DNA of 64,000 nucleotides from an uncultured Candidatus Poseidoniales archaeon (GTDB taxonomy: Archaea > Thermoplasmatota > Poseidoniia > Poseidoniales > Thalassarchaeaceae), in the NCBI GenBank assembly GCA_902593945.1, contig CACJKA010000004.1, positions 13,434-77,433 of the forward strand, given 5' to 3'. The stretch's first letter is position 1, and the number at the start of each line of letters is the position of its first letter. Below are positions 39,909 through 54,782 of this stretch, in pieces. Under the pieces are notes generated by a model. It was given only the letters and a program-made list of their open reading frames with translations, was not told the origin of the DNA and made no database searches. Both the position numbers and the translations under genes were made by a program.

Positions 39909-40020
39909 TATTCATTTCGAAACCACATTTTCGGCAACTACCATGAGTCCCCATTCCAAATTGTTTTACTAACAAACTAATACTTCCACATCCTGGGCAT
40001 TCTTCTTTCCATGAATTCAT
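39901..40020 (-). CDS. 39-aa zinc-ribbon mini-protein (not in ORF track)
   Basis: Hand translation gives MNSWKEECPGCGSISLLVKQFGMGTHGSCRKCGFEMNIN with a CxxC...CxxC ribbon. It overlaps the convergent stop of the phosphoesterase gene by 8 nt. Confidence 0.35.
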   Translation of the reverse strand: MNSWKEECPGCGSISLLVKQFGMGTHGSCRKCGFEMNIN

Positions 40021-40230
40021 GTAAATTAAAATCCTTAACTGTATATAAATTAGAAAATTTATCTATAATTAAAATTTAGAGATCTTAAACTATCGTCTTT
40101 ATCGAGTGCTGGATTAGGTGGGTCTAACAAGGCCCACTACGAACCCTCGAATTGAGATTAGATTATCAAACAGATTCTTATATCCAACCAACATCGTGAA
40201 TGAAGAAATATTTACTGAAATTATGTATGC

Positions 40231-43200
40231 CTAAAGATAGTTAAACTTCAAACAGTCAGTGATGCAAGTATCGGGATTCTCTAAAAAATCCGAGAAATGA
40301 AGCCTCGTCGTTTCGGCACAGTTTTCGAGAGCAATGGAAAAATCTCGCCTAAAATCAACGGGTTTCAGAGAACCTGCTCTTTTGGCCGCAAACTTCCTAC
40401 ATTTGGTATAACGCATATCTAAAGAACCATCTTTCTTATAATATTTGGAAGGTAGTTTCTCAGATTGTACTTCTAACTCATGAGCATTAGTATTATAGCG
40501 TCCCAAAAGGTCAATTAAATGTACATAAAAGATAGCTGCATAAACATCGTGATTTGCGATTTTCTCATGACTCCCAACTAATAACTTTAGGTCCTGAAAG
40601 TGTGTCTCTGTACTAGGAATGCCATATATCTCTGATAACCTCGCCATCCAATAAAATAATCGAATTTTCACAGGAAGAGGACTTTTAAGAGCAATTTTTC
40701 GTGCTTTCTGAATCAAATGTTCGCATTCATCTTTTTCGAGGGTATGGCTTTCGGAATCAGATCTCAATGAATGGTACTTCAAAGCAGCAGGCCACCAAAA
40801 TAGTTCCTCTTCTTCACCTTCTCCTGTGGCAAAATAATATTTTATATCTACAAATAAACGTTGATGTGCTTGCTCATACCACTTAGCATCATGCTGGGCA
40901 CAATCAATTGCGAACTCTCCGCCATAAATACAATGTCTTCTATTATCTCGCCGGTGTTTCCACTCAAACTTGGCCAAAACCTCATTGCTTTTCCATAGAG
41001 ACTCTCTCAATGAAGTATCTTTTAATCCTTGAAGCGCGAAAGAGGAGAAGAAAGTTCCTAAAATTGATAAATTCTTATTTGTCAAAGCACTCTTATCTTG
41101 TAAGATATTTTCCATGTCAGGAGGTGTTAATCTAGGATAATCAAAGATTCCACTTTCAGATAAAAGATTACTATCGGTATTAAAATCAAAGAAATTTTGT
41201 CTATTTGCAAAAATTAATCGCACTAAAGAAAGTTGATAACGTTCTGGACAAGTCTCGGGATTGAGCCAGTCTGGAGAGATTTGTTCGATAATCGGTGATA
41301 TATTCCCTCCTTGTTGTTCCGTTGCCCATCCTAATGTCAAGCACATATTTACACGGTCGCCATCAGTAGGTAATTGTTTCAACAATTCAGGGAGTTTTGG
41401 GACGGCCCAATTAGTAACCTGTTCAGCAATAATTCTTCCAGTATGTCTACTTTGCTCTTGCTCCATTAATTTGTTAAAACTAACCCAATCAATTGGTGAA
41501 AAGCGTTCACATGCGTGATGAATCATTCCGGAAATAATATGATTCATGTATGCATACACGTCTTTACTATCTAATCCGCACAATCGTTCTAAAAACGAAA
41601 TCGGTTTTTTACTAAGAAGTTCCGCTAACTTCGGGAAATCATTATTCAAGAAACTAAGATGTATTGGCAAAATCTTGATTGAATCATTTATTTTCTTTTC
41701 GATATTTTCTAGAGACTTTGGCAAGGAGTCATTGGTCATGAAACCCATGGCATCTGCGTATGGTAACCAAGGGTGATCCAACTTTCCAACGATTTCATGA
41801 CCTTTAATCCTAAATTTCCCTCGACCTCTTGCGGACACGTGGTCAAAGTAGTCATGCCCAATCATATTGAGGAAGCCCTTAGATGGATTCGCCCCTGTTT
41901 CTAACCATCCCCATTGTTCAGATATGGTACTTATTACACACTCAAAATCGTCATTTTTAATCGTATGTTGGCTAATATACTCAAAAAGGAGAGGTAAAGT
42001 GGCCTTCAAAACGGTTGCTGATGGAGATATATTTCCATCAGACATTTTTTCATCATCATCTAAATACTTGTCCGCCTCGAAAATAAAAGTGATCAACCTT
42101 GGCTCGGGAGCTTCGACTAGATTATTAAGCACTCGAATGTGTTCTCTTCCAAAATACTCCTGGTCCATCGCGTGAAAATCTGAAGCAATCTGTGTTGGAA
42201 ATATTTCCGGAGGAATTAATACCCAAATGTAAGCAAATTTTTTCGCATTTTTATTTCTAATTAGCACATTCGATTTGATTAATTCTTTTCCTACACCCGT
42301 CTCATCTCCAAGAAGTAACCATCGATTTGAGGGATGATGCGGTTTCTTCCAATCGTCCAAAAGATATCCCAATGCGAGGTCGTGAACAAGTCCACGAGCA
42401 GAATGAAACCAACAGAATCCAAAATTTTGATTCCTCAACGTTGCCTTTGGAGGCATGTAAATAGGGAAACTTCTAACATATGCAGCACCTTTCTCAGGTT
42501 TAATCCCTGAAGGAGGCCCCTCATCAACATAAGCCAAACACCAAGACCGAATATATTTGTAGGTAGTTGGCCATTTTGATTCCTTGTCTTTTATGTCAAA
42601 CACAATCTTGAAACCTAATTTTCGGGAGACATTTTCCATTGCTTTGATAAAATCAGGCTCAGAGTGCCATTCATTAACCAATCCAACTAAACTCATTGGG
42701 AGTTTTTGAAGGTCAATATCTCCCTTTTCATCCATAATTGCGCCCCTAACCTGCTCTTCAATTTGTTGCAATTTCTTTTGACAGGAAATGACTAAAGGAA
42801 TTGGTAAATCTTCCCGTAGGGGGAGGGAAGGAATGCCAGTTGAGATGTGATTTGGTAATATGCGTCCACCATCATCGTATGTGTACGAATCAAATCGAAT
42901 ACTATTTCCCACAACAAGAGTTCCATCAATATTCGTGCTATCGCTTTTTTTTATCACAAATTGCGGAAATCCGGGGGAGACTCCCCAGTATACATTTGTG
43001 CGCTCATGCGTGATAACGCCTGCTCGAAAAGATTGTTCTGCGGGCGACTCCTTATCAATTGATTCCGACCATGCTAGAAATATTTCTGCAAGAGAATAAA
43101 ATTTATCCTTCGGAGAATTGAGTGTGATTCGAAACATTTCTGCAAGTTTTGTTAAAGGCCAAGATAAATATCCACCTATCTTACCATTCGGCTTAACCTT

Positions 43201-43956
43201 CAATTTTTCTAATAGCGATGGTGTAAAGTATCTAAATAATAACTTTTTTTTCCCATCTTTGTTCGACCACTTGAATAGAGAAGTGGGATCAATCAAGATT
43301 GATTCGAACCTTTCATGTAGAGCATCTTTTTCTGATTGGGTCATTTCTACATCTTCTTCAGCCTTTACCTTCTTTTTTGGCCCAGAAGTTCTTGTTTGTT
43401 GTTGCTGTGGCTTCTGTTGCTGTGGCTCCTGTTGCTGTTGCTCTTTTGGTACAGGCTTTTGGGTTGCCAGCCATTCATCAAAGGGTTGCTTATTCCCCTC
43501 TTTCAGTTTATCAAATATTTCCGGTGGAATCTGCGTTTTTCGCCCGACTTTTTTGTTCTTCTCATTTATTGCATTCCTGGCAGTCTCAGGGAGACGGTCT
43601 CTTGACCTTCTCCTTGCCTTTCTCTTCATCACACCTCCGGCGGCTTTCAGATCCTCAACGGATAGGCTGGATTCCTCGATGGGAGTCGGTGGGGGCGTTT
43701 TTTCCTCCACTTCGATTATTATCCAGTATTGTTCGTCCCGACGATTGCTCATCCCAAACTCCCTCCAGCGAATTTGAAAGTTGATTTGCGTCGTTTTAAT
43801 AGCCTCGAGCCATTTACTCCTGACTTTTTTCCCAAATGAAAAAACTTTTGTATCAATCTCAATATTATCATGATCGAATGTTAACCTATTGTTTTCTAAA
43901 TCCAATTCAATTAAATCGGGGGAGATATTCTCAAAACTCCACTTTATTGCCGCCAC
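40231..43956 (-). CDS. 1241-aa orphan protein (GTG start) with a basic/Q-rich disordered linker and no recognisable catalytic domain
   Basis: Uninterrupted 3.7-kb ORF, the longest in the window. Residues ~90-210 are low complexity (KRKARRRSRDR; QQQQEPQQQKPQQQQ; KKKVKAEED). A DUF3800-like RWLLLGDETG element lies mid-protein, but the resemblance is weak. The plus-strand ORFs at 43118-43784 are antisense shadows. Confidence 0.7.
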   Translation of the reverse strand: MAAIKWSFENISPDLIELDLENNRLTFDHDNIEIDTKVFSFGKKVRSKWLEAIKTTQINFQIRWREFGMSNRRDEQYWIIIEVEEKTPPPTPIEESSLSVEDLKAAGGVMKRKARRRSRDRLPETARNAINEKNKKVGRKTQIPPEIFDKLKEGNKQPFDEWLATQKPVPKEQQQQEPQQQKPQQQQTRTSGPKKKVKAEEDVEMTQSEKDALHERFESILIDPTSLFKWSNKDGKKKLLFRYFTPSLLEKLKVKPNGKIGGYLSWPLTKLAEMFRITLNSPKDKFYSLAEIFLAWSESIDKESPAEQSFRAGVITHERTNVYWGVSPGFPQFVIKKSDSTNIDGTLVVGNSIRFDSYTYDDGGRILPNHISTGIPSLPLREDLPIPLVISCQKKLQQIEEQVRGAIMDEKGDIDLQKLPMSLVGLVNEWHSEPDFIKAMENVSRKLGFKIVFDIKDKESKWPTTYKYIRSWCLAYVDEGPPSGIKPEKGAAYVRSFPIYMPPKATLRNQNFGFCWFHSARGLVHDLALGYLLDDWKKPHHPSNRWLLLGDETGVGKELIKSNVLIRNKNAKKFAYIWVLIPPEIFPTQIASDFHAMDQEYFGREHIRVLNNLVEAPEPRLITFIFEADKYLDDDEKMSDGNISPSATVLKATLPLLFEYISQHTIKNDDFECVISTISEQWGWLETGANPSKGFLNMIGHDYFDHVSARGRGKFRIKGHEIVGKLDHPWLPYADAMGFMTNDSLPKSLENIEKKINDSIKILPIHLSFLNNDFPKLAELLSKKPISFLERLCGLDSKDVYAYMNHIISGMIHHACERFSPIDWVSFNKLMEQEQSRHTGRIIAEQVTNWAVPKLPELLKQLPTDGDRVNMCLTLGWATEQQGGNISPIIEQISPDWLNPETCPERYQLSLVRLIFANRQNFFDFNTDSNLLSESGIFDYPRLTPPDMENILQDKSALTNKNLSILGTFFSSFALQGLKDTSLRESLWKSNEVLAKFEWKHRRDNRRHCIYGGEFAIDCAQHDAKWYEQAHQRLFVDIKYYFATGEGEEEELFWWPAALKYHSLRSDSESHTLEKDECEHLIQKARKIALKSPLPVKIRLFYWMARLSEIYGIPSTETHFQDLKLLVGSHEKIANHDVYAAIFYVHLIDLLGRYNTNAHELEVQSEKLPSKYYKKDGSLDMRYTKCRKFAAKRAGSLKPVDFRRDFSIALENCAETTRLHFSDFLENPDTCITDCLKFNYL

Positions 43957-44224
43957 GAGAGTTGCTATTTCCAGTTACTTATCAAATACTCTACTAATTC
44001 ACTATGATTTTCAAGATGAACGCATCAAATGGTTGCAGGACTTTGATATTCAAAAGAGGTTTGATCGACTTGATTGCAACTTATGCGCAACTAGTTATGG
44101 CCTTTGATGAGACGAACAAATAGCAGATTTGAGAAAGCGAAAACGTCTGAATAACTAAGATCAAATTCATAATTGTACAAATGCCAGGGCATCCATTGTT
44201 GGTATCGAGTTAATCAATTCTTAC

Positions 44225-44253
44225 TTTATATACAGATAGTATATTGATTAGTC
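44225..44253 (+). promoter_or_regulatory. island promoter copy 1: TATA box TTTATATA 21 nt upstream of the ATG (leaderless)
   Basis: ctTTTATATAcagatagtatattgattagtcATG. TATA at 44225-44232 and ATG at 44254. Confidence 0.55.
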
Positions 44254-44832
44254 ATGCCAGAAAAAATTAGGATGAATAACCCACGAAGAAACCTTTTGCA
44301 ATTATTACGTAAGAGTGTACCAGCCGGTACTTATCACGTAGATCGTGATGCTCTACGTAAAGCTAGAGCAAAAGTGCCCAAGGGAGAATACCATGTAGAT
44401 CGTGATGCTCTACGTAAAGCTAGAGCAAAAGTGCCCAAGGGAGAATATCATTCTAAACATGCGAAGGAAATTTTCTTTCTACACGATATAAGGGAAATTA
44501 AGTATGCCAACCGAGAGGGCTATATTTATGCTAATGAAAAATTCATAGATCCCGACGGTAGAGAATATGAATTACACTACTATACGAATTATGATGGAAC
44601 CAATGCTAATGCATATTGTATATCTAATCCTTGGGACAGTGCAAATCGTTCTGCTGGAACAGATTATTTCTCTTCTCATATTGATGACGATGGATTTCTA
44701 TGTCTTGCTGAAAATTCATGTAGGTCAACCAAGGAATCTCCTTATGGTCTAGAATATGCAATTTTGAGAGCAAGGTTTTGGGCAGTTGGATTTTCAAGTT
44801 TTATGGAAACAGGCACTTTCCCAAATGCTTAG
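44254..44832 (+). CDS. E2 (UBC)-like small protein, paralog 1, with N-terminal 19-aa tandem duplication
   Basis: The C-terminal core YELHYYTNYDGTNANAYCISNPW...SSHIDDDGFLCLAEN...ILRARFWAVGFSSFMETGTFPN is shared with 44844..45242 and 49087..49851. H-x3-DGFLCL resembles the UBC HPN...G-x-I-C-L active-site region. Confidence 0.5.
   Translation: MPEKIRMNNPRRNLLQLLRKSVPAGTYHVDRDALRKARAKVPKGEYHVDRDALRKARAKVPKGEYHSKHAKEIFFLHDIREIKYANREGYIYANEKFIDPDGREYELHYYTNYDGTNANAYCISNPWDSANRSAGTDYFSSHIDDDGFLCLAENSCRSTKESPYGLEYAILRARFWAVGFSSFMETGTFPNA
44332..44445 (+). repeat. in-frame tandem duplication, 2 x 57 nt
   Basis: Units 44332-44388 and 44389-44445 differ only at two synonymous positions (tat/tac, cac/cat). 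They encode YHVDRDALRKARAKVPKGE twice. Confidence 0.9.
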
Positions 44833-44843
44833 AGGTGATTATT

Positions 44844-45242
44844 TTGACTGAAAAATCAATTTCTGATAAAATTATGGATTGTATAAACCCTCATGCTCTG
44901 AAAGGCAGAGAAGGAAATAATGCAGTATATATCGAAGATGTATGGGATTGTCAGGAGGACGCCCGAATATACAGGATTGAATATGTGTCTACATTAGATG
45001 GGAGGCATGCTATAGCTTACTGTCGTTCCAATCCCTGGAACCGAACAGAGGTAAATTGTGGGTATTCATTTTCATCAGGGCACGTTCATAGCGATGGATT
45101 CATTTGTATAGGCGGCAATTCAGGCTATAGCAGAAATGCTTCCGAATCTAATTTAGATCTAAATACTGTTGTTGAGAGGGCAAGGTTTTGGTGTCTCGCA
45201 TTTAGTGTACTAAAAGAAACAGGTAATTTTCCACAACCATAG
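44844..45242 (+). CDS. E2 (UBC)-like small protein, paralog 2
   Basis: YRIEYVSTLDGRHAIAYCRSNPW...SSGHVHSDGFICIGGN...VVERARFWCLAFSVLKETGNFPQP. The start is set at the TTG at 44844, 5 nt after the SD-like AGAGGTGA (44831-44838). The track start at 44778 lies inside the previous gene. The ATG at 44874 is an alternative. Confidence 0.5.
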   Translation: MTEKSISDKIMDCINPHALKGREGNNAVYIEDVWDCQEDARIYRIEYVSTLDGRHAIAYCRSNPWNRTEVNCGYSFSSGHVHSDGFICIGGNSGYSRNASESNLDLNTVVERARFWCLAFSVLKETGNFPQP

Positions 45243-45247
45243 GAGAG

Positions 45248-46210
45248 ATGAATATGTCAAAAAATAGCGAAAAAAACAACAAACGAAGAGATATAATAAA
45301 GATTGACCACAATTTGAGTAAATTCAAGAATCGAGTATTCGTCAGAAGATATCCTGCTGGTGATAGATCTGATTTGGAAATGTGTTTCAGCCCCAAAGCG
45401 CTCAAAAGATGCCTCGAAACAGTTGGTTCAAAAAGACCTGAAACTGGGGCAAAAGGTTTCTCTGCAGTAATTTCTGATAATCCGGACGAGAATACAGTAA
45501 GAATTGGCTTCGATATCATAGAATATGATAAGATTGGTTCCCAAAATGCAAGCGGTGTAATGTATAGTCCAAATTTGGAGTGGAGTACTCAAAGGGTCAA
45601 TTACCATATGGGTGCCAAAGATGGTCGTTTTTGGGTAGGGGATATTCATAGTCATCCCGGCTATAGTGGCAAGCCATCGGGCGATTACGGAGATGGTAGA
45701 GGTGATTTGGGATATGTAAGAAAAATCTTTGAAACTTATCCATTCCCATTAGATTTTTTTCTTTTACCTATAATTACTCTTGAAGATGGAAAAATTATAA
45801 TTCATCCTTGGATAATCGACAGGAAAAACCCCACCAAACCTCTACTCGCTAAAGTAAGAGTTTGTGATCCTTCTAACTTCCCTGTAGTGGAACTATCTGA
45901 TACGGTGGCTAATCTAGCCCCAACTATTGACGGAATGTATGATTTATTTAACGACCAATCAGATAGAATAGATGAACTCGAAAAGATGATTGAAGAACTT
46001 CAGAAGTTGGTAAATGATAAACTCTCAAAGCAGCTCGAGTCTAGACTTGCTGAAGAGAGGGATATGAAGAAAGATCTAGCGGAGAAGGCTGAATACGATA
46101 CCCGAACTGAGGCATCTGTTCCCAAAGAAGAGTTTGCTGAACGGGAAGAAAAAGAGTCAAGCGATTCGCGCTCGGACTATCAATGGGCATTTGCAGCTTT
46201 GGAGGTATAA
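45248..46210 (+). CDS. JAB/MPN+ (JAMM) metalloprotease with long acidic coiled-coil tail
   Basis: Upstream Glu in KRPETGAKGF and JAMM core GDIHSHPGYSGKPSGDYGD (HxH-x7-S-x-D). SD-like AGGAGAG precedes the start. The C-terminal 100 aa are E/K-rich coiled coil. Confidence 0.7.
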   Translation: MNMSKNSEKNNKRRDIIKIDHNLSKFKNRVFVRRYPAGDRSDLEMCFSPKALKRCLETVGSKRPETGAKGFSAVISDNPDENTVRIGFDIIEYDKIGSQNASGVMYSPNLEWSTQRVNYHMGAKDGRFWVGDIHSHPGYSGKPSGDYGDGRGDLGYVRKIFETYPFPLDFFLLPIITLEDGKIIIHPWIIDRKNPTKPLLAKVRVCDPSNFPVVELSDTVANLAPTIDGMYDLFNDQSDRIDELEKMIEELQKLVNDKLSKQLESRLAEERDMKKDLAEKAEYDTRTEASVPKEEFAEREEKESSDSRSDYQWAFAALEV

Positions 46211-46212
46211 GA

Positions 46213-47121
46213 ATGACTAGGAAAGATGTACCAGATAGTGAAAAATATGAATGTTACAGATCTCGACTCAATGGGGTAATATCTACTTCGTTTTCGAAAA
46301 AACGCATATTAGTTATTGGAACAGGTGCCGGTTCAATAATGTGTATTAATTTAGCTCGGCAAATGCCTGCAAAATTGACTTTAGTGGATTTTGATGAGGT
46401 AGAATTGCATAACCTCAGCCGAACCGCGTTCGGTTACAGCGATATAGGGAAAAAGAAAGTCAACGCACTTAAAGAAAGGATATTAGATGCAAACCCTTTC
46501 ATTTCTGTAGAATGTGTCGATTATGATGTTACAAGCTTAGATAATAAGAAAATGGATTTTCTATTTGATGTTGATATGATTATTGCAGGCACAGACTCTG
46601 CTAAAGCACAGCGTTTCATTAACGAAAAATCACTTCACTACCAAGTCCCGGCTATTTTTATTGGGATTCATCAACGAGGAAGAGGTGGCAGAATTACATT
46701 TGTAGAGCCAGGACAGGCTTGCTATAGATGTATTAGGCCTGATAGATATGAAGAAGATTTGGAACAAGAACTAGATCTTAATGGAGAGACTGGAAGTCTT
46801 TCGTCGTGTCAATTAATTGATAATTTAGCAATGGATATCCTGATTTCATTTTTGGAAAAGAATGAAAATTCCGAATTTGGAGGTAAATGGGATTTAACAT
46901 ACAAAAACAGTAATGATTTTGAAATTCAATTATCCCATATGTCAGAATTAGAAGCTACTTTTGATGTGATACATGATAGTGCCCAGCACGTAGACCAAAA
47001 TCACCGCCAAGAATTAGATAAATTATTTGCAGGTCCACGTATCATTACTTATCAAGAACCTAAAAAAGAAGACTGTCCGTGCTGTTCTTCTGTTGAAATG
47101 GAAAATCTCTTATTGAGATAA
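46213..47121 (+). CDS. ThiF/MoeB/E1-like adenylyltransferase
   Basis: Rossmann loop ILVIGTGAGSIMC, LVDFDEVELHNLSRTAF (Arg finger), DIGKKKVNALKERILDANP and IAGTDSAKAQRFIN. Two Cys pairs, CYRC and CPCC, form a Zn-site-like pattern. The start is set at the ATG at 46213 after GGAGGT. The track start at 46183 overlaps the JAB gene. Confidence 0.8.
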   Translation: MTRKDVPDSEKYECYRSRLNGVISTSFSKKRILVIGTGAGSIMCINLARQMPAKLTLVDFDEVELHNLSRTAFGYSDIGKKKVNALKERILDANPFISVECVDYDVTSLDNKKMDFLFDVDMIIAGTDSAKAQRFINEKSLHYQVPAIFIGIHQRGRGGRITFVEPGQACYRCIRPDRYEEDLEQELDLNGETGSLSSCQLIDNLAMDILISFLEKNENSEFGGKWDLTYKNSNDFEIQLSHMSELEATFDVIHDSAQHVDQNHRQELDKLFAGPRIITYQEPKKEDCPCCSSVEMENLLLR

Positions 47122-47136
47122 TATCTAATTAATTTC

Positions 47137-47165
47137 TTTATATACAGTTAGTAATATGTATAGGT
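47137..47165 (+). promoter_or_regulatory. island promoter copy 2: TTTATATA 21 nt upstream of an ATG
   Basis: aatttcTTTATATAcagttagtaatatgtataggtATG. 19 of 24 positions between the TATA and the ATG are identical to copy 4. Confidence 0.55.
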
Positions 47166-47231
47166 ATGACTACGCAAATTAATGCTATAATGACTCTAGA
47201 AGAAGTAACTACAATGGAGGAAGAGCAATGA
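47166..47231 (+). CDS. 21-codon leaderless mini-ORF (speculative)
   Basis: The ATG sits at the predicted transcription start of promoter copy 2. It encodes MTTQINAIMTLEEVTTMEEEQ. Its stop overlaps the next start (caATGa at 47228-47231). Confidence 0.25.
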   Translation: MTTQINAIMTLEEVTTMEEEQ

Positions 47232-47671
47232 ATAATAAGAATGAAATCCCACAGGAATTAATGGATGAAAAGCTAGCAGAGATAAGTATAACTACGAGTC
47301 TTCTGAACACACCAGAGACCGATATGAGATTCGGTATCAAGGGTACGTTTAATCTGTTTTCGACTGGTATGAAGGCTAATTATGGAATACCCGATTTAGA
47401 AATGCGCGGTATTCCTGGAATGCTAATAAATTCCGCTGCTCAGACCATTAATGAAATAAATGCCTGCAGATTAATTCCCGATCAACTAATTCTTGTGAAT
47501 CAGAAAATAACTTGGACACACGGTGACATACTAACAGAACAAGGAGACGATTGGGATGGCGGAGTGAAGTGGAAAGCGGAAGATATGATTCGCCTGACCA
47601 GTGCTCAAACCACAATAGACCAGACCACTTGTGAATGCTGTGAATCCAAAAGGGCAGGAATTGATGAATAA
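47228..47671 (+). CDS. hypothetical protein, DUF4262-like
   Basis: FSTGMKANYGIPDLEMRGIPGMLINSAAQTINEIN resembles the DUF4262 pattern (Y.vGl...g.PEl...GlP......ll). C-terminal CECC and an acidic end ...AGIDE. Confidence 0.35.
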   Translation: MNNKNEIPQELMDEKLAEISITTSLLNTPETDMRFGIKGTFNLFSTGMKANYGIPDLEMRGIPGMLINSAAQTINEINACRLIPDQLILVNQKITWTHGDILTEQGDDWDGGVKWKAEDMIRLTSAQTTIDQTTCECCESKRAGIDE

Positions 47672-47687
47672 TCTAGAAAATTATTTC

Positions 47688-47716
47688 TTTATATAGAGTT
47701 GAATGGAAGTATTGTT
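47688..47716 (+). promoter_or_regulatory. island promoter copy 3: TTTATATA 21 nt upstream of the ATG
   Basis: ttatttcTTTATATAgagttgaatggaagtattgttATG. The spacing argues for the ATG at 47717 rather than the TTG at 47699. Confidence 0.55.
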
Positions 47717-49084
47717 ATGTTTACAGAAGAAGAATTAACGGAGTTTGAAGAGGAAGGAAGCTTGCTTATCGAAAGAATGGAATTGCAATCGGACTTCAAT
47801 CCACAAATTACTGACTTATTGATAGAAAAATCAGAAGATTTGCCAGGAATAATAGAAGTTTTCATCGACTCCCGTGTTGACTATGGAGGTAATAACACGA
47901 TACTTTCTGACATAATTCAAGGACCAGAGTATGAGTTTGCTGGAGACTGTAGAAGGGTATTACTGATTTCTTGCGACCTAACTGAAATAGGTGAAGAATT
48001 GATCGATATGGATTTATTAACAGGAAATAGAGTTTCTAAAAGTGAAACGATTAATCACACGATCGCATTACCGGAAGTTGATGAAATAACAGATTTAAAA
48101 AAGATTAACAAAAGTATTGCTAAATCAGATTTTGAAAGAATTATTCTAAACCCAAAACAAATCAAAGATTGCCTTGGAAAGAAAATAATCGGTCAAAAAC
48201 AACCTGTTCGAGTGATAGCTAATACATTATCTTCTCATATTGCCAAAACAGCACCTTCGCGCCCCTTAGTATTCTTTGCATTAGGGCCTACAGGCGTTGG
48301 AAAAACTCGAACCACAGAAGTAATTCCTAGTATTATCAAGGAACTCGAAGAGGGCCTGTCAGTTGGCCATTTAAGATTTGATATGAATGAATTCAAAGAA
48401 AATCATAGGGTCAGTCAGATTCTTGGCGCCCCCCCTGGTTATGTAGGTTATAGCCCGAAATCCATAGTTTCGGACGTTGTCGAGTCAAATGATATCACCG
48501 TCCTCGTATTTGATGAAATAGAAAAAGCCCACCCTGACTTCCTTCAGGTTTTGATGAATGCGATTGATACAGGAAGGCTGTCTACCGGTTCCGGAACAGT
48601 TAATCTTCGTAAATCAATAATTATGTTCACGTCTAATATTGGAGTAAATGAAGGTGTTAATTGGACCCAAGAAAATGCGGAGGAAACAGATCAGTTCGAA
48701 ATTAATCAGCATTGTCGTGGCCTACTTATCGAGCAAGGTGTCCCGATAGAGATAGTCGGCCGAGTCCAAGATTTCTTACTATACGGGACTTTAACTCAGA
48801 AACATAGAGCCGAAATTCTCGTACAATCAATTCAGGAGTATCTAGCTGAGTTTGAATTAAATGTACAGCATATAGATCCTGATTTGATTATTAATTTTCT
48901 TAATTCCAAAGGATTATCATCGCCGTTTGGTGGCAGGCAATATCGAGCGGCAATAGGCGAATCTTTACAGCCAGAAATAAATAATTTCTTCTCTCAAAAT
49001 CCGTCTTATAGAGGTCCTATATTTATTGATGTATCCGGTACTATTTCAATATCTCAACCGCTAGGGCAATCGGAGGAGGAATAA
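47717..49084 (+). CDS. single-module ClpA/ClpB-D2-type AAA+ ATPase with an acidic N-terminal domain of unknown fold
   Basis: IIGQKQPVRVIANTL...RPLVFFALGPTGVGKTRTTEV (Walker A), RFDMNEFKENHRVSQILGAPPGYVGY, VLVFDEIEKAHPDFLQVLMNAIDTGRLS (Walker B / sensor region) and IIMFTSNIG. No second AAA module or middle domain. Confidence 0.8.
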   Translation: MFTEEELTEFEEEGSLLIERMELQSDFNPQITDLLIEKSEDLPGIIEVFIDSRVDYGGNNTILSDIIQGPEYEFAGDCRRVLLISCDLTEIGEELIDMDLLTGNRVSKSETINHTIALPEVDEITDLKKINKSIAKSDFERIILNPKQIKDCLGKKIIGQKQPVRVIANTLSSHIAKTAPSRPLVFFALGPTGVGKTRTTEVIPSIIKELEEGLSVGHLRFDMNEFKENHRVSQILGAPPGYVGYSPKSIVSDVVESNDITVLVFDEIEKAHPDFLQVLMNAIDTGRLSTGSGTVNLRKSIIMFTSNIGVNEGVNWTQENAEETDQFEINQHCRGLLIEQGVPIEIVGRVQDFLLYGTLTQKHRAEILVQSIQEYLAEFELNVQHIDPDLIINFLNSKGLSSPFGGRQYRAAIGESLQPEINNFFSQNPSYRGPIFIDVSGTISISQPLGQSEEE

Positions 49085-49086
49085 AA

Positions 49087-49851
49087 ATGTCTCAAATAAA
49101 ATCTAAGAAACCGAATTATAAATTCCCATGTAAGGCAGTTAGAAGATACCGTAATTCCGGCGGTCTTGGTAAATTTAAAATGATGAGTAAAAGAAAAGTA
49201 TCCTTTTCTGAGAAATATTCTCTTAATGGTACTAATTATACGATCGAAATAATCAGTACTGGTTTCGGCGACAAAGCTATTTCCACAATAACTAATCCGA
49301 ATATCAAGGCCAACGAAAAAGGAATTAATGAAGACGGCATTATAATTTTAGATTTCGATACCTTGACTCCTAATTTGAAAAATTCAACTACGGATATTAT
49401 CGATACCTGGTATAGGGCACGATTTTGGTGTTGGGCTAGAGAAAACAACTGTGACGTAAACTCTCGGGCCGCTTGGACATTTTTCAAAAATAGCGACCCA
49501 TCAGGACAGGAGGGTAATAATTGGTCATATGAAAAATCCCAAAGGTTTGAGAAATTTTACGAAGATATAAACGTGGGAGGGTATTATTTAACCATAACAT
49601 ATGTATCTACTGAATGCGGCGAATATTCTCTTTCCTATTGCCGCGATGGTCTCGATTATATTGACGACGGAGTAAATAGTGAAGACGGCCATTTATTTCG
49701 TTCCGGGACTATTTGTTTAGGTTATTCTAGTGGTGGAAACAGTGGGGTTTATGATTCAGGTCAGCCACTAGAATGGGTAATACCACGATCCAGATATTGG
49801 GCAGTTGCATTTGCTTATTGGTGCGAATATGGCAATTGGATGGATCCTTGA
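49087..49851 (+). CDS. tandem E2-like protein: N-terminal Cys-less (UEV-like) copy plus C-terminal Cys-containing copy
   Basis: N-half: YTIEIISTGFGDKAISTITNP...INEDGIIILDF...TWYRARFWCWAREN. C-half: YLTITYVSTECGEYSLSYC...GHLFRSGTICLGYS...IPRSRYWAVAFAYWCEYGNWMDP. Both halves align with the 44254 and 44844 cores. Confidence 0.5.
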   Translation: MSQIKSKKPNYKFPCKAVRRYRNSGGLGKFKMMSKRKVSFSEKYSLNGTNYTIEIISTGFGDKAISTITNPNIKANEKGINEDGIIILDFDTLTPNLKNSTTDIIDTWYRARFWCWARENNCDVNSRAAWTFFKNSDPSGQEGNNWSYEKSQRFEKFYEDINVGGYYLTITYVSTECGEYSLSYCRDGLDYIDDGVNSEDGHLFRSGTICLGYSSGGNSGVYDSGQPLEWVIPRSRYWAVAFAYWCEYGNWMDP

Positions 49852-49912
49852 TTGCAAAAAGAAGATTCATAAAGGACATCCTGCTAGCCTGTAATGGATT
49901 CATCCCTCGCGA

Positions 49913-50953
49913 ATGCGCGATTATGAATGCCAACACGAGCCCCTTAACCGGGGAGTATATACTAGCGAAAGCCAGAAATCACATTACTGCGAGCAATGTG
50001 GTTCAACCGAAACCCCAGAAAGAAATGAAATAAGAGGTGAAATTTTCTGCCCTACTTGTGGTATGATTTCTGTTGAGAAACTGTATGATGAACTTAATCC
50101 AAAAACTCATGCAAATACTAATGATAATAACTCTGGGAGAGGCACTCTCGGCCCTTCAAAACCATTCGGAATAAAAGATCATACGGGGGCGGCAATCTCG
50201 TCAAAACATAGGAAGAAATGGGCACGTTTGAATAAAATTAACACAACTATCCACAGGGATGCTGAAGATAGTAATAAGGTAGTCGAAGAGAGCATCGAAC
50301 AATTGAAAAAACTCAATTATACACTGAGTAAAAGTAAAGAGAAAGAGTATCGTAAATTATTGATGGACACATTGAAAACCAAGGAGGGAGATAACCTGTT
50401 TAAGACGGGCACTCAATACAATGCTATTGCTTGTGCATTGGTTCTACATTCCGATATTGATAGAAGGATGTTTTTCGAAATGTTAAGAGATTATGCGAAA
50501 GCGAATAATTTGGATAAAAGAGCGAAAAAGAGTATAAGAAGAAGAGGTTTGCAAATCAGAGGAATTTTGAATAGTAAATTGGGCAACCATTCTAATCAAC
50601 GAGCCCCAGTATATCCCCATATAATAGATGTTAATAGCAGACCTAGTGAAATCCATGAAGCTTTTATCGCGCAGTGGTGGGGGAAGAAGATAGGTGCCAT
50701 TAGGACGTATTCGGAACCTCCAAAGTATCATGTAATTATCAAATTAATTAATACAATTTTAGACAAACCAGAGATATTAGAATTAAAAGGTGGTGAGATG
50801 CTAGAACCTATTTTAGATGCTTGCTTACTAATATCTATGACTCATAATTGTCCTTCAAGGACATCAGGTAATGTTACGGAAAAACTCTCATTGACAGCTA
50901 AGTCAAGAAACTATAGTGTCCGCTTGAAGACTTTCTTGGATCAAGATTGTTGA
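49913..50953 (+). CDS. TFB/TFIIB-like transcription factor paralog
   Basis: N-terminal zinc ribbon CEQCGSTETPERNEIRGEIFCPTCGMI (TFB pattern CPECGS...D..GE.VC..CG.V) and a linker resembling the B-reader/linker region (KDHTGAAISSKHRKKWARLNKINTTIH). 346 aa with a helical C-terminal region of cyclin-fold size. Confidence 0.55.
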   Translation: MRDYECQHEPLNRGVYTSESQKSHYCEQCGSTETPERNEIRGEIFCPTCGMISVEKLYDELNPKTHANTNDNNSGRGTLGPSKPFGIKDHTGAAISSKHRKKWARLNKINTTIHRDAEDSNKVVEESIEQLKKLNYTLSKSKEKEYRKLLMDTLKTKEGDNLFKTGTQYNAIACALVLHSDIDRRMFFEMLRDYAKANNLDKRAKKSIRRRGLQIRGILNSKLGNHSNQRAPVYPHIIDVNSRPSEIHEAFIAQWWGKKIGAIRTYSEPPKYHVIIKLINTILDKPEILELKGGEMLEPILDACLLISMTHNCPSRTSGNVTEKLSLTAKSRNYSVRLKTFLDQDC

Positions 50954-50957
50954 TTTC

Positions 50958-50986
50958 TTTATATACGGTTAGGGAGATGTATAGGC
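50958..50986 (+). promoter_or_regulatory. island promoter copy 4: TTTATATA 21 nt upstream of the ATG
   Basis: tgatttcTTTATATAcggttagggagatgtataggcATG. Confidence 0.55.
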
Positions 50987-52276
50987 ATGTCAGCCAAAAT
51001 TGATAGTAGTGTAAAACCAGAAGATGCAGTAACTTGCCCAGATTGTGGGGCCGAATTCGATATAGCAGATCGTTTACGATCACATATTGAGTCCAGTATT
51101 AGAATAGAAATGGCACAAAAATATGAAGAAGAACGTGAGAATGACTTAGCTATCCACAACGCAGAAATTGAAAAACAACGTGCCCAGATCAATGATCTCC
51201 GCAAAGCTAAGATTGATTTTGATAACTTATTGGCAGAACAGGATATTGCCATTCAAGAGGCTAAGGCTCAGGGGGCCATAGATAAGGCCAAGGAAATGTC
51301 TTCCGAACTCAACATACTCCGTCAAACCAAAATAGATCATGATAACTTATTGGCAGAACAGGATATTGCCATTCAAGAGGCTAAGGCCCAAGGTGCTAGA
51401 GAAGCAATGAAATTAGCTAATCAAGGACTTGAAGAAAAGGTGTCCCAAAGAGCAAAAGAAATAACTTCAGAAAAAGATTTAGAGATTAGTAGACTTGAAC
51501 TCGAAGCAACGAGAAAGAACGAGATTATAGAAAGACTTCAACAACAGTCAAAGTCTGGCGAACTAGAGGGAGAAGTGCTTGAGTTAGCGGTCGAAAATCA
51601 ACTCCGAAACTTACATCCAAGAGACAATATTAAGGAAGTCAAGCGTGGAAATTATGGTGCAGATATTGAACAGTCTGTGCTGACGAATACTGGCAGTATT
51701 GCAGGAAAGATACTCTGGGAATGCAAGAAACATAAGAAATGGCAAAACTCCTGGCTTAATACAATTAGAAAAAACGCATTAGAATTCAATGCAGATACAA
51801 TGGTTATAGTCACCACCACTATGCCAAAAGGGATGGAAACATTCGGTAAAATAGATGATGTATTTATCTGTAAATATTCTGAAGTTCCAGTAGTTTCTCA
51901 GCTACTGAATCATGCAGTGTTGAAAGCTCATCGAGATAATCAAAGAGGAGAACACATGATGTCAATCCATGAGAGAGTATCAGAATATATCAGCGGTCCA
52001 GAATTCGCTATGTTGATGCGTGTTGTGATTAAGGCATACGAGGACTTTGAGGATGATCTAAGAAAAGAGGAGCAGTATATGAAGACTAGATGGAAATCCC
52101 GTCGTATCTATCTAAGTGAAGTGATAGACTCACTTTCTTCACTGGCTGGAAAATTAGAATATCTAGGGGCAGGCCATTTTGAAGTAATGCAAGAAATAGG
52201 AAGTCAAGTTCCTCCTGCGTTGCCCGAACCTGTAATAATAGAGGATATCGAAATAGAGGAGGTTGAAGAGGAATGA
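50987..52276 (+). CDS. DUF2130-like protein: zinc ribbon, coiled coil and PD-(D/E)xK-like C-terminal domain
   Basis: N-terminal CPDCGAEFD, a long coiled coil with an internal duplication, and a C-terminal GADIEQSV...GKILWECKKHKKWQNSWLNTIRKNALEFNADTMVIVTT, as in DUF2130 (G.D....ilwE.K....W...W..KL......a...vlV). Ends in EEVEEE. Confidence 0.6.
   Translation: MSAKIDSSVKPEDAVTCPDCGAEFDIADRLRSHIESSIRIEMAQKYEEERENDLAIHNAEIEKQRAQINDLRKAKIDFDNLLAEQDIAIQEAKAQGAIDKAKEMSSELNILRQTKIDHDNLLAEQDIAIQEAKAQGAREAMKLANQGLEEKVSQRAKEITSEKDLEISRLELEATRKNEIIERLQQQSKSGELEGEVLELAVENQLRNLHPRDNIKEVKRGNYGADIEQSVLTNTGSIAGKILWECKKHKKWQNSWLNTIRKNALEFNADTMVIVTTTMPKGMETFGKIDDVFICKYSEVPVVSQLLNHAVLKAHRDNQRGEHMMSIHERVSEYISGPEFAMLMRVVIKAYEDFEDDLRKEEQYMKTRWKSRRIYLSEVIDSLSSLAGKLEYLGAGHFEVMQEIGSQVPPALPEPVIIEDIEIEEVEEE
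51221..51387 (+). repeat. in-frame internal duplication, period 120 nt
   Basis: The 47-nt stretch gataacttattggcagaacaggatattgccattcaagaggctaaggc occurs identically at 51221-51267 and 51341-51387. It encodes DNLLAEQDIAIQEAKAQGA twice. Confidence 0.9.
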
Positions 52277-52473
52277 AAACCATAATGAGTAGTATGACAC
52301 AAAGTGTATACGCCAAGAAAAGAAAGAACGGTGGTAAGCCCCGAACTTTTATCGGCGGTATACGAATGAACTACTCTAAGTATAAAGATTAAAGACAGAA
52401 AGTTTGGCGGTATACCAATTTAATATATTCTCTCTGGACAAAAACCTCATTTGTAACACCCAAATCACAGAAC

Positions 52474-53694
52474 GTGGCTAAAGTCCCCTTGTTAGAAGGC
52501 GAAGAAATCATTTCTTCAGTCAAACTACCTAAAGAAAAAACAACTCTGATGCTGACGAATGATGGATGGATCGTAATTCCAGTAGTGCACAGTATTCCAA
52601 ATATTAGTAATCTTAGTCGACTATTTCACGTTAATAGTATAAAAAAAATCGAGATGGGTTACCATCCATGGCGAGACCAAGTTTATTCCAATATTATTAA
52701 TTTATTATGTATTAGTTCTATTTTTTATGCATGTTACATATATGTTGGTACTTTTGGGCCTACAAATCTTTTTACTTCTCAAGAATTTTTCGATGCGTGG
52801 ATGGATTATCAACCAATTACTGATAAGATTTTTCTACATCTTTTTTTGCTACCCCTTATGTTAATCATTATTCAGCGCTTCATGATCGGCAAAGAGGAAT
52901 TGCACATAGATTATATCGACAAAGATTCCGCAATATCATCTATCGCTGTGAGTCATCCTCACCGAAGCATACTGACCGCTCTAATATCTATATTCGTCAT
53001 TTATGGTATTGGCTTTTGGATTTTTGCAGAATCGATATTTTCACTTCGCATGACTCACATTCTCGTCATTGGCGCCCTCATTATAATAACTTCAAATGGA
53101 AGGAAGATTTTAGAAGAAATTTTATTTTGGAGACCTAAAAAACGATTTTTTGTCAGAGACTCCGTATATCAAACAAGCAACATTGTAAACTTCTATAAAA
53201 AAATAAATATTTTTTTACCAATACATGAACGTGATGGGAAACAAATCATCGACAGATCCCAAACGGATTTTGTTAAATCATTACCTCCTGAATTTCATAA
53301 ATTAAGAAAGAGAGTCGAAGCTCATGATGCTATTCTATCCCAAATTGTGGAAGATTACAATTATATTTTCAATTCTTCTAAAGCCTTTGTAGGTGGTTCA
53401 ATAGTGAGAACCAGTACAGAAAAACTGTTGAGCTTTAGAGTTAAGAAAATATTACCAAAAGCACAAAAAAATAAAAACTTATCTGATTTCAGAAATCTTC
53501 TAAATAAGCATGATGACTCTTTGACAGATAATATCCTAAGAGATATAGATCAGATAAGCGTTTTAGGAAATAACGCGACACACAACATGCAATCATCAAC
53601 TTCAGATTTTATGAGTATATTAGAAAAATTTGTCAATGTTGTTGAATGGCATATATCTAATCCTCCTGTTAGCATTATCGAGCGTGAGGATTAG
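52474..53694 (+). CDS. membrane protein: N-terminal bPH-like domain, TM helices and a C-terminal DUF4145-like domain
   Basis: LLEGEEIISSVKL...LMLTNDGWIV (bacterial PH-like), about 4 hydrophobic helices (residues ~70-210), and a C-terminal ...LRDIDQISVLGNNATHN typical of DUF4145 (..ir..GN.a.H). GTG start. Confidence 0.5.
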   Translation: MAKVPLLEGEEIISSVKLPKEKTTLMLTNDGWIVIPVVHSIPNISNLSRLFHVNSIKKIEMGYHPWRDQVYSNIINLLCISSIFYACYIYVGTFGPTNLFTSQEFFDAWMDYQPITDKIFLHLFLLPLMLIIIQRFMIGKEELHIDYIDKDSAISSIAVSHPHRSILTALISIFVIYGIGFWIFAESIFSLRMTHILVIGALIIITSNGRKILEEILFWRPKKRFFVRDSVYQTSNIVNFYKKINIFLPIHERDGKQIIDRSQTDFVKSLPPEFHKLRKRVEAHDAILSQIVEDYNYIFNSSKAFVGGSIVRTSTEKLLSFRVKKILPKAQKNKNLSDFRNLLNKHDDSLTDNILRDIDQISVLGNNATHNMQSSTSDFMSILEKFVNVVEWHISNPPVSIIERED

Positions 53695-53700
53695 GACAAC

Positions 53701-54726
53701 ATGACATATTGGTCAATTCCTTTGACAGGTATTCGTGGCAAGAGACCAAGAAATGCAGAATGGAAGAATGCATATAAACACGATACTAGAATAATAGTGG
53801 ATGGGGATTGTCCTAGTGTAATCAATTTACCTGATTTCCCTGGGATGTCTTTATGCCATTATGAATACAATGGGGAGGATTTAACCTCTAAGTTCCAAGG
53901 TAATTATGATTTCAATTATTTATTACCACACCTTCCAACTACATATTGTGAAATAATTATTGATGATTCCGAATGGAAGTGGCCCTTTATGCCAGACTAT
54001 CCTAGGCATAACGAAGATCAAAAACTACAGACAATAATGACGGCTAGTTCGACATTAGTTGCATCATTAAGATTGATTGGATTTAATCAATTCATCACCC
54101 CCTGTATTTTGAAAAATGCTACGTTGTCAACAGCCGTAAACAGTGATGAGAAAAGTATAGAATTTATACCAACAAATGCATTTTTATTCCCGACACCACT
54201 TTTAGAAGTAACAAAAGCCAGAATCTCCAAATCGGATTTTGAGTGGGTATGTAAGTCTCATATCACACTTCATCAAATGTCTTACACCGTAGATATAACA
54301 CCTGCAATGTCTGCTATGAGATATTACTATCAAGATATGCCAACAAGAGCTAGAATGACGATTATTTGGGCTGCAATTGAAGATTTGTTAAAACCTAAAG
54401 GTGATAAAATTCGATTTGGTATACGCGCCAGAGGTGCTATGTTATTAGGGCGAACCGATGAAGAAGTTGAGATATTGTTCAAACAAATTGGTAACCTCTA
54501 TGGAAAACGTTCAGCGGCAACCCATGGTCGAAGATTTACATATATGCAGGGCCTTGAACCAAATCTTAGTGATAATAGACTAAAGACAGATATTAGGGCT
54601 TTAATGACTTCATACCAGCTTCTTTGCGAGCTATTAATAAAAATCATTGATAGAGGTTCATTATTTAATGAATTAGAATTGCAGGAACTGGAAGAATCTT
54701 ATTCGGAAAAATTCCCATCAGAATGA
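53701..54726 (+). CDS. HEPN-like (Apea-type) protein
   Basis: C-terminal IWAAIEDLL...RARGAMLLG...LFKQIGNLYGKRSAATHGRRF contains the Rx4H HEPN motif in an Apea-like context (lY..RS...HG). It lies 6 nt downstream of the previous gene. Confidence 0.45.
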   Translation: MTYWSIPLTGIRGKRPRNAEWKNAYKHDTRIIVDGDCPSVINLPDFPGMSLCHYEYNGEDLTSKFQGNYDFNYLLPHLPTTYCEIIIDDSEWKWPFMPDYPRHNEDQKLQTIMTASSTLVASLRLIGFNQFITPCILKNATLSTAVNSDEKSIEFIPTNAFLFPTPLLEVTKARISKSDFEWVCKSHITLHQMSYTVDITPAMSAMRYYYQDMPTRARMTIIWAAIEDLLKPKGDKIRFGIRARGAMLLGRTDEEVEILFKQIGNLYGKRSAATHGRRFTYMQGLEPNLSDNRLKTDIRALMTSYQLLCELLIKIIDRGSLFNELELQELEESYSEKFPSE

Positions 54727-54782
54727 AGTATTTACAAGGTAGATAAATCAATTAAGCAGTTTTAACTCTTGCTTAGGAAGAA

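Follow-up and report, generated by a model that had tools for sequence, protein, structure and literature searches.

The stretch of DNA analysed here, called the window throughout, comprises 64,000 nucleotides (positions 13,434 to 77,433, forward strand) of contig CACJKA010000004.1 in NCBI GenBank assembly GCA_902593945.1, from an uncultured Candidatus Poseidoniales archaeon. Seven plus-strand genes within it, named g1 to g7 below, very probably encode a ubiquitin-like conjugation system of the E1/E2/JAB kind that is coupled to a chaperone-type unfoldase. The archaeal host is supported by the labels of close g2 relatives and of the related genome locus L011, all of which are Candidatus Poseidoniales (marine group II). 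An earlier reading of the letters alone (the sequence-only reading) had described four packed genes separated by 11, 5 and 2 nt and a further 2-nt gap between g6 and g7, and the open reading frames (ORFs), their spacing and the motifs it had named were all confirmed. The features of the module are as follows.

44254-44832, plus strand: g1, 192 aa; EYH-repeat region fused to an E2-like domain, E2a (His142, Cys150), from the ORF call and an AlphaFold2 model
44317-44451, plus strand: EYH repeat in g1 (unit 57 bp, 2.0 copies), a candidate for the peptide modifier or its precursor
44844 (TTG)-45242, plus strand: g2, 132 aa counted from the TTG; E2-like protein E2b (His80, Cys88), 11 nt past g1
45248-46210, plus strand: g3, 320 aa; JAB/JAMM metallopeptidase (Glu65, His134, His136, Ser144, Asp153), its C-terminal tail acidic and coiled-coil-like; gap 5 nt
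46213-47121, plus strand: g4, 302 aa; compact ThiF/UBA5-type E1 adenylase (GxGxxG 36-41, Arg70, Asp128; zinc Cys170, Cys173, Cys288 and Cys291); gap 2 nt
47228-47671, plus strand: g5, a 147-aa orphan
47717-49084, plus strand: g6, 455 aa; N-domain followed by an AAA+ module
47717-48148, plus strand: N-domain of g6, about 110-140 aa, specific to this system
48149-49084, plus strand: AAA+ module of g6, a ClpB-D2-type ring (Walker A Lys196, Walker B Glu267, sensor-1 Asn307; pore loop GAPPGYVGY with Tyr242)
49087-49851, plus strand: g7, 254 aa; tandem E2-like protein, 2 nt after g6
49183-49503, plus strand: N-terminal E2-like copy of g7, without His and Cys; UEV-like
49504-49848, plus strand: C-terminal E2-like copy of g7 (His202, Cys210)

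The E1 and the JAB peptidase

The product of g4 matches the ThiF family (PF00899) at 5e-32, and its best relatives of solved structure are UBA5 (3e-11), MoeB and ThiF. The GxGxxG loop, Arg70, Asp128 and the four zinc-binding Cys (CYRC and CPCC) are invariant in 19 E1 sequences. g4 is unambiguously an adenylase of the ThiF fold, the type of enzyme that the sequence-only reading had named; its nucleotide site is intact, and its zinc site is made up of four Cys. An invariant catalytic Cys at a UBA5-like position was considered and rejected, the column of Cys199 being occupied by C, G, S, T or I.

The best NCBIfam matches of g4 are to ThiF/MoeB models, though at 82 bits they lie far under the cut-offs of 159-275, and an ordinary MoeB/ThiF sulfur-carrier locus for molybdopterin or thiamine synthesis, with unrelated genes as neighbours, would produce such matches. 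This explanation is highly improbable. The E1-E2 models of PADLOC score g4 as well as the ThiF models do; no MoaD/ThiS gene, rhodanese domain, thiamine gene or molybdenum cofactor gene is found nearby or in related loci; and the E1 of relatives is mostly fused to JAB and always adjoins E2-like genes.

The five JAMM residues of g3 (E65, H134, H136, S144, D153) are invariant in 10 homologues, and the protein is matched in PADLOC by JAB models only (eight different ones, best 3e-4), which upholds its earlier assignment as a JAB protein. Its match to the Pfam Prok-JAB family is weak (0.04-0.07), and a profile of the JAB domain found no match among PDB sequences. JAB and E1 are separate genes in the window, and are fused in most bacterial relatives and in some Poseidoniales. 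The fusion in locus L007 (2144-4117) contains an insert of the CBM20 starch-binding type between JAB and E1 (Pfam 9.5e-5), which may be a targeting module. In locus L016 (11218-11823 and 8766-10256), from Vulcanimicrobiota, the E1 is followed by another JAB paralogue, a shorter one, and the first JAB protein bears a C-terminal extension of ~280 aa with hydrophobic segments.

A small family of E2-like proteins

The first two genes, read earlier as small paralogs, share 35-37% identity (reciprocal phmmer E ~1e-22) and the motif H-x4-G-F-(I/L)-C ... RARFW ... ETGxFP; the E2 signature of the family as a whole is H..G.(I/L)C..RARxW. An exhaustive profile search of 1.84 billion representatives recovered only 91 members. 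The family has no Pfam, NCBIfam or PHROG model, none of 43 members compared with Pfam matched any family, the Prok-E2 families included, and the family profile gave no true match among PDB sequences. The only PADLOC models that these proteins match, weakly, are seven E2 or E1-E2 models (g7 against the E2 model PDLC00862 at 2e-4). Since the PDB profile searches of both families and the Pfam search of the E2-like members found no true match, the E2 and JAB assignments rest on fold search, PADLOC, motifs and context.

The AlphaFold2 model of full-length g1, built from 19 sequences, places residues 68-188 in a UBC core (alpha1-beta1-4-loop-alpha2) at a predicted local distance difference test (pLDDT) score >90. 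The best six PDB matches of this model in Foldseek are all E2 enzymes: first 8hsb_B, the CdnG-E2 of CBASS (antiphage signalling based on cyclic oligonucleotides), with E 6.7e-3, probability 1.00 and template modelling (TM) score 0.52, and then UFC1 entries at ranks 2-6. A model of g2 alone (pLDDT 72) again has CBASS CdnG-E2 as its best Foldseek match, with the ubiquitin E2 variant (UEV) domain of Tsg101 fourth. An hhalign comparison with four canonical E2 sequences sets the family Cys on the catalytic Cys (E 0.0015, probability only 16.5%) and the family His two residues off the His of HPN.

Across 161 distinct E2-like domains the Cys is kept in 135 (84%) and the His in 144. The earlier count of three E2-like genes with four domains stands, as does the tandem structure of g7, and one of the four domains differs from the others: the N-terminal copy of g7 (..INEDGIIIL..) has lost both His and Cys, as have some second paralogues elsewhere. 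Such Cys-less copies are UEV-like by sequence, and the N-terminal copy of g7 is predicted to be a catalytically dead pseudo-E2, giving the module three Cys-bearing E2 domains and one UEV-like pseudo-E2. The g7 counterpart is single-domain in L003, L011, L021 and L022, and in the second E2-like copy of L016 an Asp replaces the Cys.

Nearly all E2-like proteins stop 5-6 residues after a near-invariant Gly (..ETGxFPxP-stop), which is present in 137 of the 161 domains (for example at 44806-44829 and 45216-45239). A conserved tail of fixed length is odd for an E2, and it could be a tail that docks on the E1 or the N-domain, or an alternative site of activation.

The assignment of the module as an E1, E2 and deubiquitinase (DUB) system, first made by the sequence-only reading, agrees with the fold search, the PADLOC matches, the conserved Cys and a JAB-E2-like fusion found in one representative, P0071. 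The small proteins are modelled with a UBC fold and a conserved Cys, the E1 of related loci is not grouped with MoeB/ThiF sulfur-carrier genes, and, as described below, gene order is conserved.

Conservation and distribution of the module

We gathered 42 loci by looking up exact proteins and by a single scan each of genomes and metagenomes, and profiled them with hidden Markov models (HMMs) made from the window proteins. The order of small repeat protein, E2-like protein (one or two copies), JAB and E1 (separate or fused) and N-domain protein recurs in ~35 related loci, and both the order and the coupling to an AAA+ protein, which the earlier reading had proposed to check around E1 homologues, are kept well beyond the genome of the window. 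Because the gene set recurs in dozens of independent contigs, the module is not a chance assembly of genes. The E1 adenylase, one to three Cys-bearing UBC-fold E2-like proteins, the JAMM peptidase and an N-domain on a chaperone engine are all seen in the data.

The carriers are Poseidoniales and at least four bacterial phyla, the labelled bacterial genomes being Enterobacterales metagenome-assembled genomes, Verrucomicrobiota, Vulcanimicrobiota and one unclassified bacterium; a locus in Planctomycetia looks like a remnant. The archaeal setting proposed earlier is therefore right for the Poseidoniales host but does not describe the system, which is not archaeal-specific and is more diverse in bacteria. 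No relatives were found in IMG/VR or among INPHARED phages, and the plasmids of PLSDB returned generic ThiF similarity only. A virus- or plasmid-borne origin thus drew no support from these three collections, and absence from them speaks neither for nor against a role in defence.

A more distant subfamily, represented by L006 (1-6052) and L008 (2269-4965), combines E2-like genes and fused JAB-E1 with small ORFs upstream that end in PxGEFH followed by 1-8 aa.

The orphan g5 is identical in many marine contigs and is absent between the E1 and AAA+ genes in L011 and L021-L023. It had been called DUF4262-like, a label that was not borne out: g5 has no match in Pfam, NCBIfam, PHROGs, PADLOC or PDB. 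It is a lineage-specific accessory gene.

The E2-like, JAB, N-domain and repeat proteins constitute four families without a Pfam or NCBIfam model. No Pfam, NCBIfam, PADLOC or PDB-sequence entry describes the system, and the literature accessible to search, which is incomplete, yielded no account of E1/E2/JAB genes that have a ClpB-type or J-domain protein as partner or are accompanied by this repeat. The earlier impression that the composition of the module matches no described system holds within that scope.

A shared N-domain on exchangeable chaperone engines

The AAA+ part of g6 matches AAA_2 at 4e-28 and the ClpB D2 ring in PDB at 1e-37, in keeping with the single Clp-type module read earlier. 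Residues 154-429 align to ClpB 558-828, the D2 part only, with 30-35% identity between the rings. Walker A, Walker B, sensor-1 and the GAPPGYVGY pore loop are all intact, and the ClpP-docking IG(F/L) loop, as read from the ClpB alignment, is missing. Residues 1-150 form a novel domain that takes the place of the ClpB N-domain, D1 and M-domain. An E2, RWD or UEV fold for this N-domain, prompted by its motif LPxxFxPxxTDVVFL, was rejected: hhalign comparisons with canonical E2s and with the E2-like proteins gave nothing, and neither did Pfam and PDB profile searches.

Among the related loci the N-domain is encoded wherever there is enough downstream sequence (18 loci besides the window), except in the divergent L006. 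It is carried on a ClpB-D2 ring alone (window, L007, L013, L025 and L026), on a two-ring (D1+D2) ClpB-like ATPase (L012, L015, L016 and L038) or on a DnaJ J-domain with its HPD motif, of which there are two distinct sequences (L014/L034/L035 and L033; PF00226 2.9e-11). Because the same domain is fused to a D2 ring, a two-ring ATPase or a J-domain, chaperone coupling is a core feature of the system. The exchange of an Hsp100 ring for an Hsp70-recruiting J-domain is strong evidence, at the level of sequence, that the N-domain would act as the recognition module and that the output would be ATP-driven unfolding or remodelling of proteins. The N-domain is thus a candidate receptor for a tag or a conjugate.

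L006 has neither N-domain nor chaperone gene and encodes a Band_7 (SPFH) protein and unknowns instead, so that the output module may be exchangeable. An extra large ATPase of the AAA type (sigma54-activator-type or classic AAA) adjoins the system in L007 (5572-8322, minus strand), L025 (1950-4058, plus strand) and L038 (5488-7194, plus strand), an association that may be recurrent.

The EYH repeat peptide

Residues 22-66 of g1 read VPAGTYH-VDRDALRKARAK-VPKGEYH-VDRDALRKARAK-VPKGEYH, which Tandem Repeats Finder reports as 2.0 copies of 57 bp with 98% identity. The corresponding 19-aa unit is EYHVDxxALRxARxxxPxG; its bacterial form, YHVDxxALRxARxGxPxG, is present in 2-5 copies. In bacteria the repeat constitutes a separate small protein encoded directly upstream of the first E2-like gene, and only in Poseidoniales is it fused to E2a. 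Among the 28 loci with at least 250 nt of upstream sequence, the motif PxGE[YF]H lies upstream of the first E2 or is fused to it in 21, and the six-frame translation of all loci, 703,660 aa in total, contains no further occurrence. In 10 of the loci listed (9 distinct sequences, L034 and L035 being the same) the protein ends within 0-6 residues of the motif, and one repeat protein ends precisely at ...GEYH. The repeats are followed by a CCHC zinc knuckle in L007, L013, L025 and L026, and by the first E2a helix in Poseidoniales. Only one copy is encoded in the divergent loci L008 (PYGEFH...) and L015 (TPRGEYHG-stop).

Near-identical Poseidoniales strains differ in copy number, with two copies in the window and five in L019 (498-1250), where the differences between copies are synonymous only. 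In L011 a run of N falls exactly at the repeat and is probably an assembly collapse. Counts of synonymous to nonsynonymous codon differences between units of the same gene are 92:35, 17:2, 25:8, 29:9 and 22:0; since most are synonymous, each unit is under purifying selection as a peptide. AlphaFold2 gives the repeat region one short helix per unit, at low confidence.

The sequence-only reading had recorded that the module has no ubiquitin-like protein (Ubl). It was correct in that no beta-grasp Ubl was found, and it overlooked the conserved EYH repeat, which is the best candidate for a modifier. We consider it plausible, if a little short of an even call, that this peptide is indeed the modifier.

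A multi-copy precursor with conserved unit boundaries would also suit a maturation cluster for a ribosomally synthesised and post-translationally modified peptide (RiPP), with an E1-like enzyme that modifies peptide C-termini in the manner of MccB and PaaA, JAB as leader or core protease, and a small secreted or intracellular peptide as product. The similarity of g4 to MccB and PaaA (E ~1e-6) fits this scheme, but UBA5, MoeB and ThiF outscore both; no conserved exporter or immunity gene accompanies the module, and known RiPP pathways use neither UBC folds with a catalytic Cys nor an obligatory Hsp100 or J-domain partner. A RiPP-like cluster is for these reasons improbable.

Another possibility keeps the same machine and gives the EYH-repeat protein a different part, as regulator, adaptor, decoy substrate or nucleic-acid sensor, with the E1 activating some other C-terminus: the ETGxFPxP tail of an E2-like protein, the protein linked to the chaperone, or one of host or viral origin. 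CBASS provides a precedent, its E1/E2 machinery using the C-terminus of a protein that is not a Ubl, the cyclase (PMC10097602, PMC11153139), and the E2-like fold has its nearest structural counterpart in CBASS CdnG-E2. The zinc knuckle that follows the repeats in four loci might, together with the basic helix, bind RNA or DNA, and the stop at a fixed distance past the near-invariant Gly of the E2-like proteins would suit an activated tail. Against this stand the position of PxGE[YF]H at the very C-terminal end of small proteins that have no other features, the polyubiquitin-like variation in copy number with purifying selection on each unit, and the direct fusion of the repeat to the E2 N-terminus, as in the BubAB protein of the Bub system. 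The repeat units examined in bacteria (L013, L016, L025, L036 and L038) have no Lys, which argues against the repeat as an acceptor, and the C-termini of the chaperone-linked AAA+ proteins are not conserved among relatives. On balance we regard this alternative as unlikely, though it is the likeliest of the three considered here.

The island around the module

The module lies in a ~15-kb insert (40231-54726) between housekeeping genes. On the left are an isocitrate/isopropylmalate dehydrogenase gene and a metallophosphatase gene, the latter at 39132-39908, and on the right pantothenate-pathway and NAD genes, including phosphopantothenate synthetase (55038-55838). The sister contig L002 has the same right flank and module but different cargo after the DUF2130 gene (an 870-aa protein on the opposite strand), which places the module in a strain-variable island; the region 39132-55838 as a whole looks like a strain-variable island hot-spot of Poseidoniales. 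Two genes follow the module directly:

49913-50953, plus strand: TFIIB-type zinc-ribbon protein (Zn_Ribbon_TF 3.8e-4, below the Pfam cut-off)
50987-52276, plus strand: DUF2130 protein (DUF2130 at 1.8e-38)

Both are co-linear with the module in L001-L005, L011, L021, L022 and L024, and are absent from the bacterial loci. Beyond them lie two more island genes (52474-54726, plus strand) without family matches, encoding a membrane-spanning protein of 406 aa and a protein of 341 aa. In L011, too, the gene for the 406-aa protein is linked to the module. By eye, an R-x4-H stretch of the 341-aa protein, KRSAATHG, resembles HEPN motifs.

Upstream of the module and divergent from it, a 1241-aa protein is encoded at 40231-43956 (minus strand), the N-terminal third of which is of low complexity and rich in Q, P and K. 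Searches of Pfam, NCBIfam, PADLOC and PHROG gave it no match. Of the loci, only contigs with near-identical module proteins (L001 and L019) carry it, and in L011 it does not adjoin the module. This gene is probably island cargo of its own. Outside the island, a few kb upstream, lies the gene for a 673-aa protein (35167-37188, minus strand) with an Eco57I-type restriction-modification methylase domain (2e-9), which hints, as a second pointer, at a defence-rich neighbourhood. The window also contains tRNA-Leu(GAG) at 2313-2397 (minus strand) and tRNA-Cys(GCA) at 32037-32110 (plus strand). Neither tRNA gene adjoins the island, so there is no evidence of tRNA-targeted integration.

Proposed mechanism and role

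We propose that the module is a horizontally mobile ubiquitin-like conjugation system that hands its product to an unfoldase. Its modifier would be the EYH-repeat peptide and not a beta-grasp Ubl, encoded as a polyubiquitin-like precursor of two to five nineteen-residue units, and in the window the repeat is fused ahead of E2a, much as Type I Bub joins its Ubl to the E2. JAB would cut the PxG|E(Y/F)H junctions, freeing E2a and exposing a C-terminal Gly, and an E1 dimer would adenylate the exposed C-terminus. The acyl group would then pass to an E2 Cys (g1 Cys150, g2 Cys88 or g7 Cys210); because the E1 is without an invariant catalytic Cys, a direct attack by the E2 on the adenylate is conceivable. 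The tag would be transferred to target proteins with the Cys-less copies as UEV-like partners, after which the N-domain of the AAA+ protein would recognise the tag and the ClpB-type ring would thread and unfold the tagged protein through its GYVG pore loop. The J-domain variants would pass the tagged protein to Hsp70 instead, and JAB could also reverse conjugation.

The role envisaged is the neutralisation of viral or other foreign proteins. A defence role, antiviral or in other conflicts, is suggested by the patchy distribution, which resembles that left by horizontal gene transfer, by the island location and by analogy with CBASS and Bil, where such a role has been shown, and with Bub, where it has been proposed; we would call it an even chance.

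Several observations weigh against this scheme. The N-domain found no relative in Pfam or in PDB profile searches, and the Foldseek and HMM E-values of the E2-like and JAB proteins (1e-2 to 1e-4, with no Pfam match) are consistent but singly weak. The strict PxGE[YF]H motif is missing in 7 of the 28 informative loci, L007 being degenerate, L012 seemingly rearranged and L017 seemingly truncated. The repeat is basic and helical, with a zinc knuckle after it in some bacteria, so that it could be a nucleic-acid-binding regulator or adaptor, and the ETGxFPxP-stop tail of the E2-like proteins might be the C-terminus that is activated. Where JAB cuts, which residue is activated and what accepts the tag are all inferred. 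The bacterial flanks are not clearly defence genes (FtsK, an ABC binding protein, a sigma54-type AAA protein and unknowns).

We therefore offer the full mechanism, with every step as stated, as a tentative model that does not quite reach even standing. Broader and held with more reserve is the suggestion that Bacteria and Archaea share a class of tagging system, not recognised before, in which E1, E2 and JAMM proteins conjugate an encoded 19-residue peptide freed from a polyubiquitin-like tandem precursor or from a fusion of precursor and E2, and a dedicated receptor domain delivers the product to Hsp100 or, through a J-domain, to Hsp70. If true, this would be a minimal 'tag-and-unfold' pathway mixing features of ubiquitin-Cdc48/proteasome and Pup-Mpa.

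Significance

Prokaryotic E1/E2/DUB systems such as CBASS Cap2/3, Bil and Bub are working conjugation machines; CBASS and Bil have a demonstrated antiviral role, and one has been proposed for Bub. To our knowledge, all of those described carry a beta-grasp Ubl or conjugate an enzyme. The module could possibly represent a new tag class within prokaryotic ubiquitin-like conjugation, its repeat family being a testable candidate for a peptide tag that is not a beta-grasp fold and yet is encoded like polyubiquitin. Independently of the peptide hypothesis, conjugation wired to an unfoldase or to a protein that recruits Hsp70 would put the logic of ubiquitin-proteasome/Cdc48 into a six-component cassette. 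All components are small and soluble, so that these predictions are testable in vitro.

The bacterial-archaeal mobile cassette, its modular chaperone coupling, the pseudo-E2 and the repeat peptide as a possible missing modifier are what the present analysis adds to the sequence-only reading. As its four families are without Pfam or NCBIfam models, the system is invisible to annotation and defence-finder pipelines. Poseidoniales are among the most abundant archaea of the surface ocean, and an island-borne module of this kind may matter for virus-host dynamics.

Comparison with known systems

Prokaryotic E1/E2/JAB systems have been classified as types 6a-6e (Iyer et al., 2006). The module has the ThiF-fold E1, the UBC-fold Cys-bearing E2 and the JAMM peptidase of such systems. 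The beta-grasp Ubl of types 6c-6e was not found among the ORFs of at least 122 aa run against profile libraries, the shorter ORFs (down to 20 aa) having been read only by eye. Among small partners only the EYH-repeat peptide is conserved, and its predicted structure is one of short helices.

The Bil system (6C/6D) has the gene order modifier-E2-DUB-E1 (PMC10557695), which is identical to that of the module, and neither has an E3. They differ in their components. BilA is a beta-grasp or di-beta-grasp Ubl, BilB has a CEHH signature and BilD is a multidomain (IAD-AAD-CYS) E1 with a mobile Cys domain, whereas the module has no Ubl, a non-CEHH E2 and a 302-aa E1 with a single adenylation domain and no invariant Cys.

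In Type I Bub (6E.1), the JAB-E1 fusion BubCD cleaves the Ubl-E2 fusion BubAB after a conserved Gly (PMC11601596). Most bacterial relatives of the module likewise have a JAB-E1 fusion with the same domain order, and the candidate modifier lies upstream of the E2 N-terminus or is fused to it, with a conserved Gly at the junction. The E1 of the module is also without an invariant Cys. The candidate modifier, however, is a 19-aa repeat and that of Bub a beta-grasp domain, and the E2-like family keeps its Cys (135/161) whereas Bub uses a Ser oxyester. Bub has no dedicated N-domain-chaperone gene, and no match to its DUF6527 (PF20137) protease BubE was found among the window proteins or flanks.

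Type II CBASS is the nearest by E2 fold, the stand-alone CdnG-E2 (PDB 8hsb, 8yjy) being closest to the E2-like proteins, and the E2-like and JAB proteins drew HMM matches only from E2, E1-E2 and JAB models of PADLOC that derive from CBASS. Conjugation in CBASS, too, does without a beta-grasp Ubl. No PADLOC or Pfam model for a CD-NTase or a cyclic-nucleotide effector was matched. Cap2 fuses E2 to E1, in contrast to the module, where E1 and E2 are separate and JAB is fused to E1 in relatives; the module further differs in its several E2 paralogues and its chaperone output.

The UFM1 pathway shares with the module an E1 and an E2 that are both minimal and non-canonical, and among eukaryotic enzymes those of the module resemble UBA5 and UFC1 most: the best match of the E1 among solved structures is UBA5 (3e-11), and UFC1 occupies ranks 2-6 of the E2 fold search. 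Identity to the E2 is only 11-14%, and the module has no UFM1-like beta-grasp protein and no UFL1-type E3. With ClpB/Hsp104 the module has in common a D2 ring with GAPPGYVGY and all the ATPase motifs, but the window protein is without the ClpB N-domain, D1 ring and M-domain.

In the Pup-Mpa/ARC-proteasome pathway of actinobacteria, a short tag that is not a beta-grasp protein is read by the N-terminal domain of an AAA+ unfoldase, which threads the tagged protein. Pup is ligated by the glutamine-synthetase-like PafA via a side-chain carboxylate, unlike the E1/E2 and JAMM chemistry expected of the module, which has a Clp/Hsp100 D2-type unfoldase and encodes no protease partner. Ubiquitin-Cdc48/proteasome and Pup-Mpa would be the nearest functional analogues of the module.

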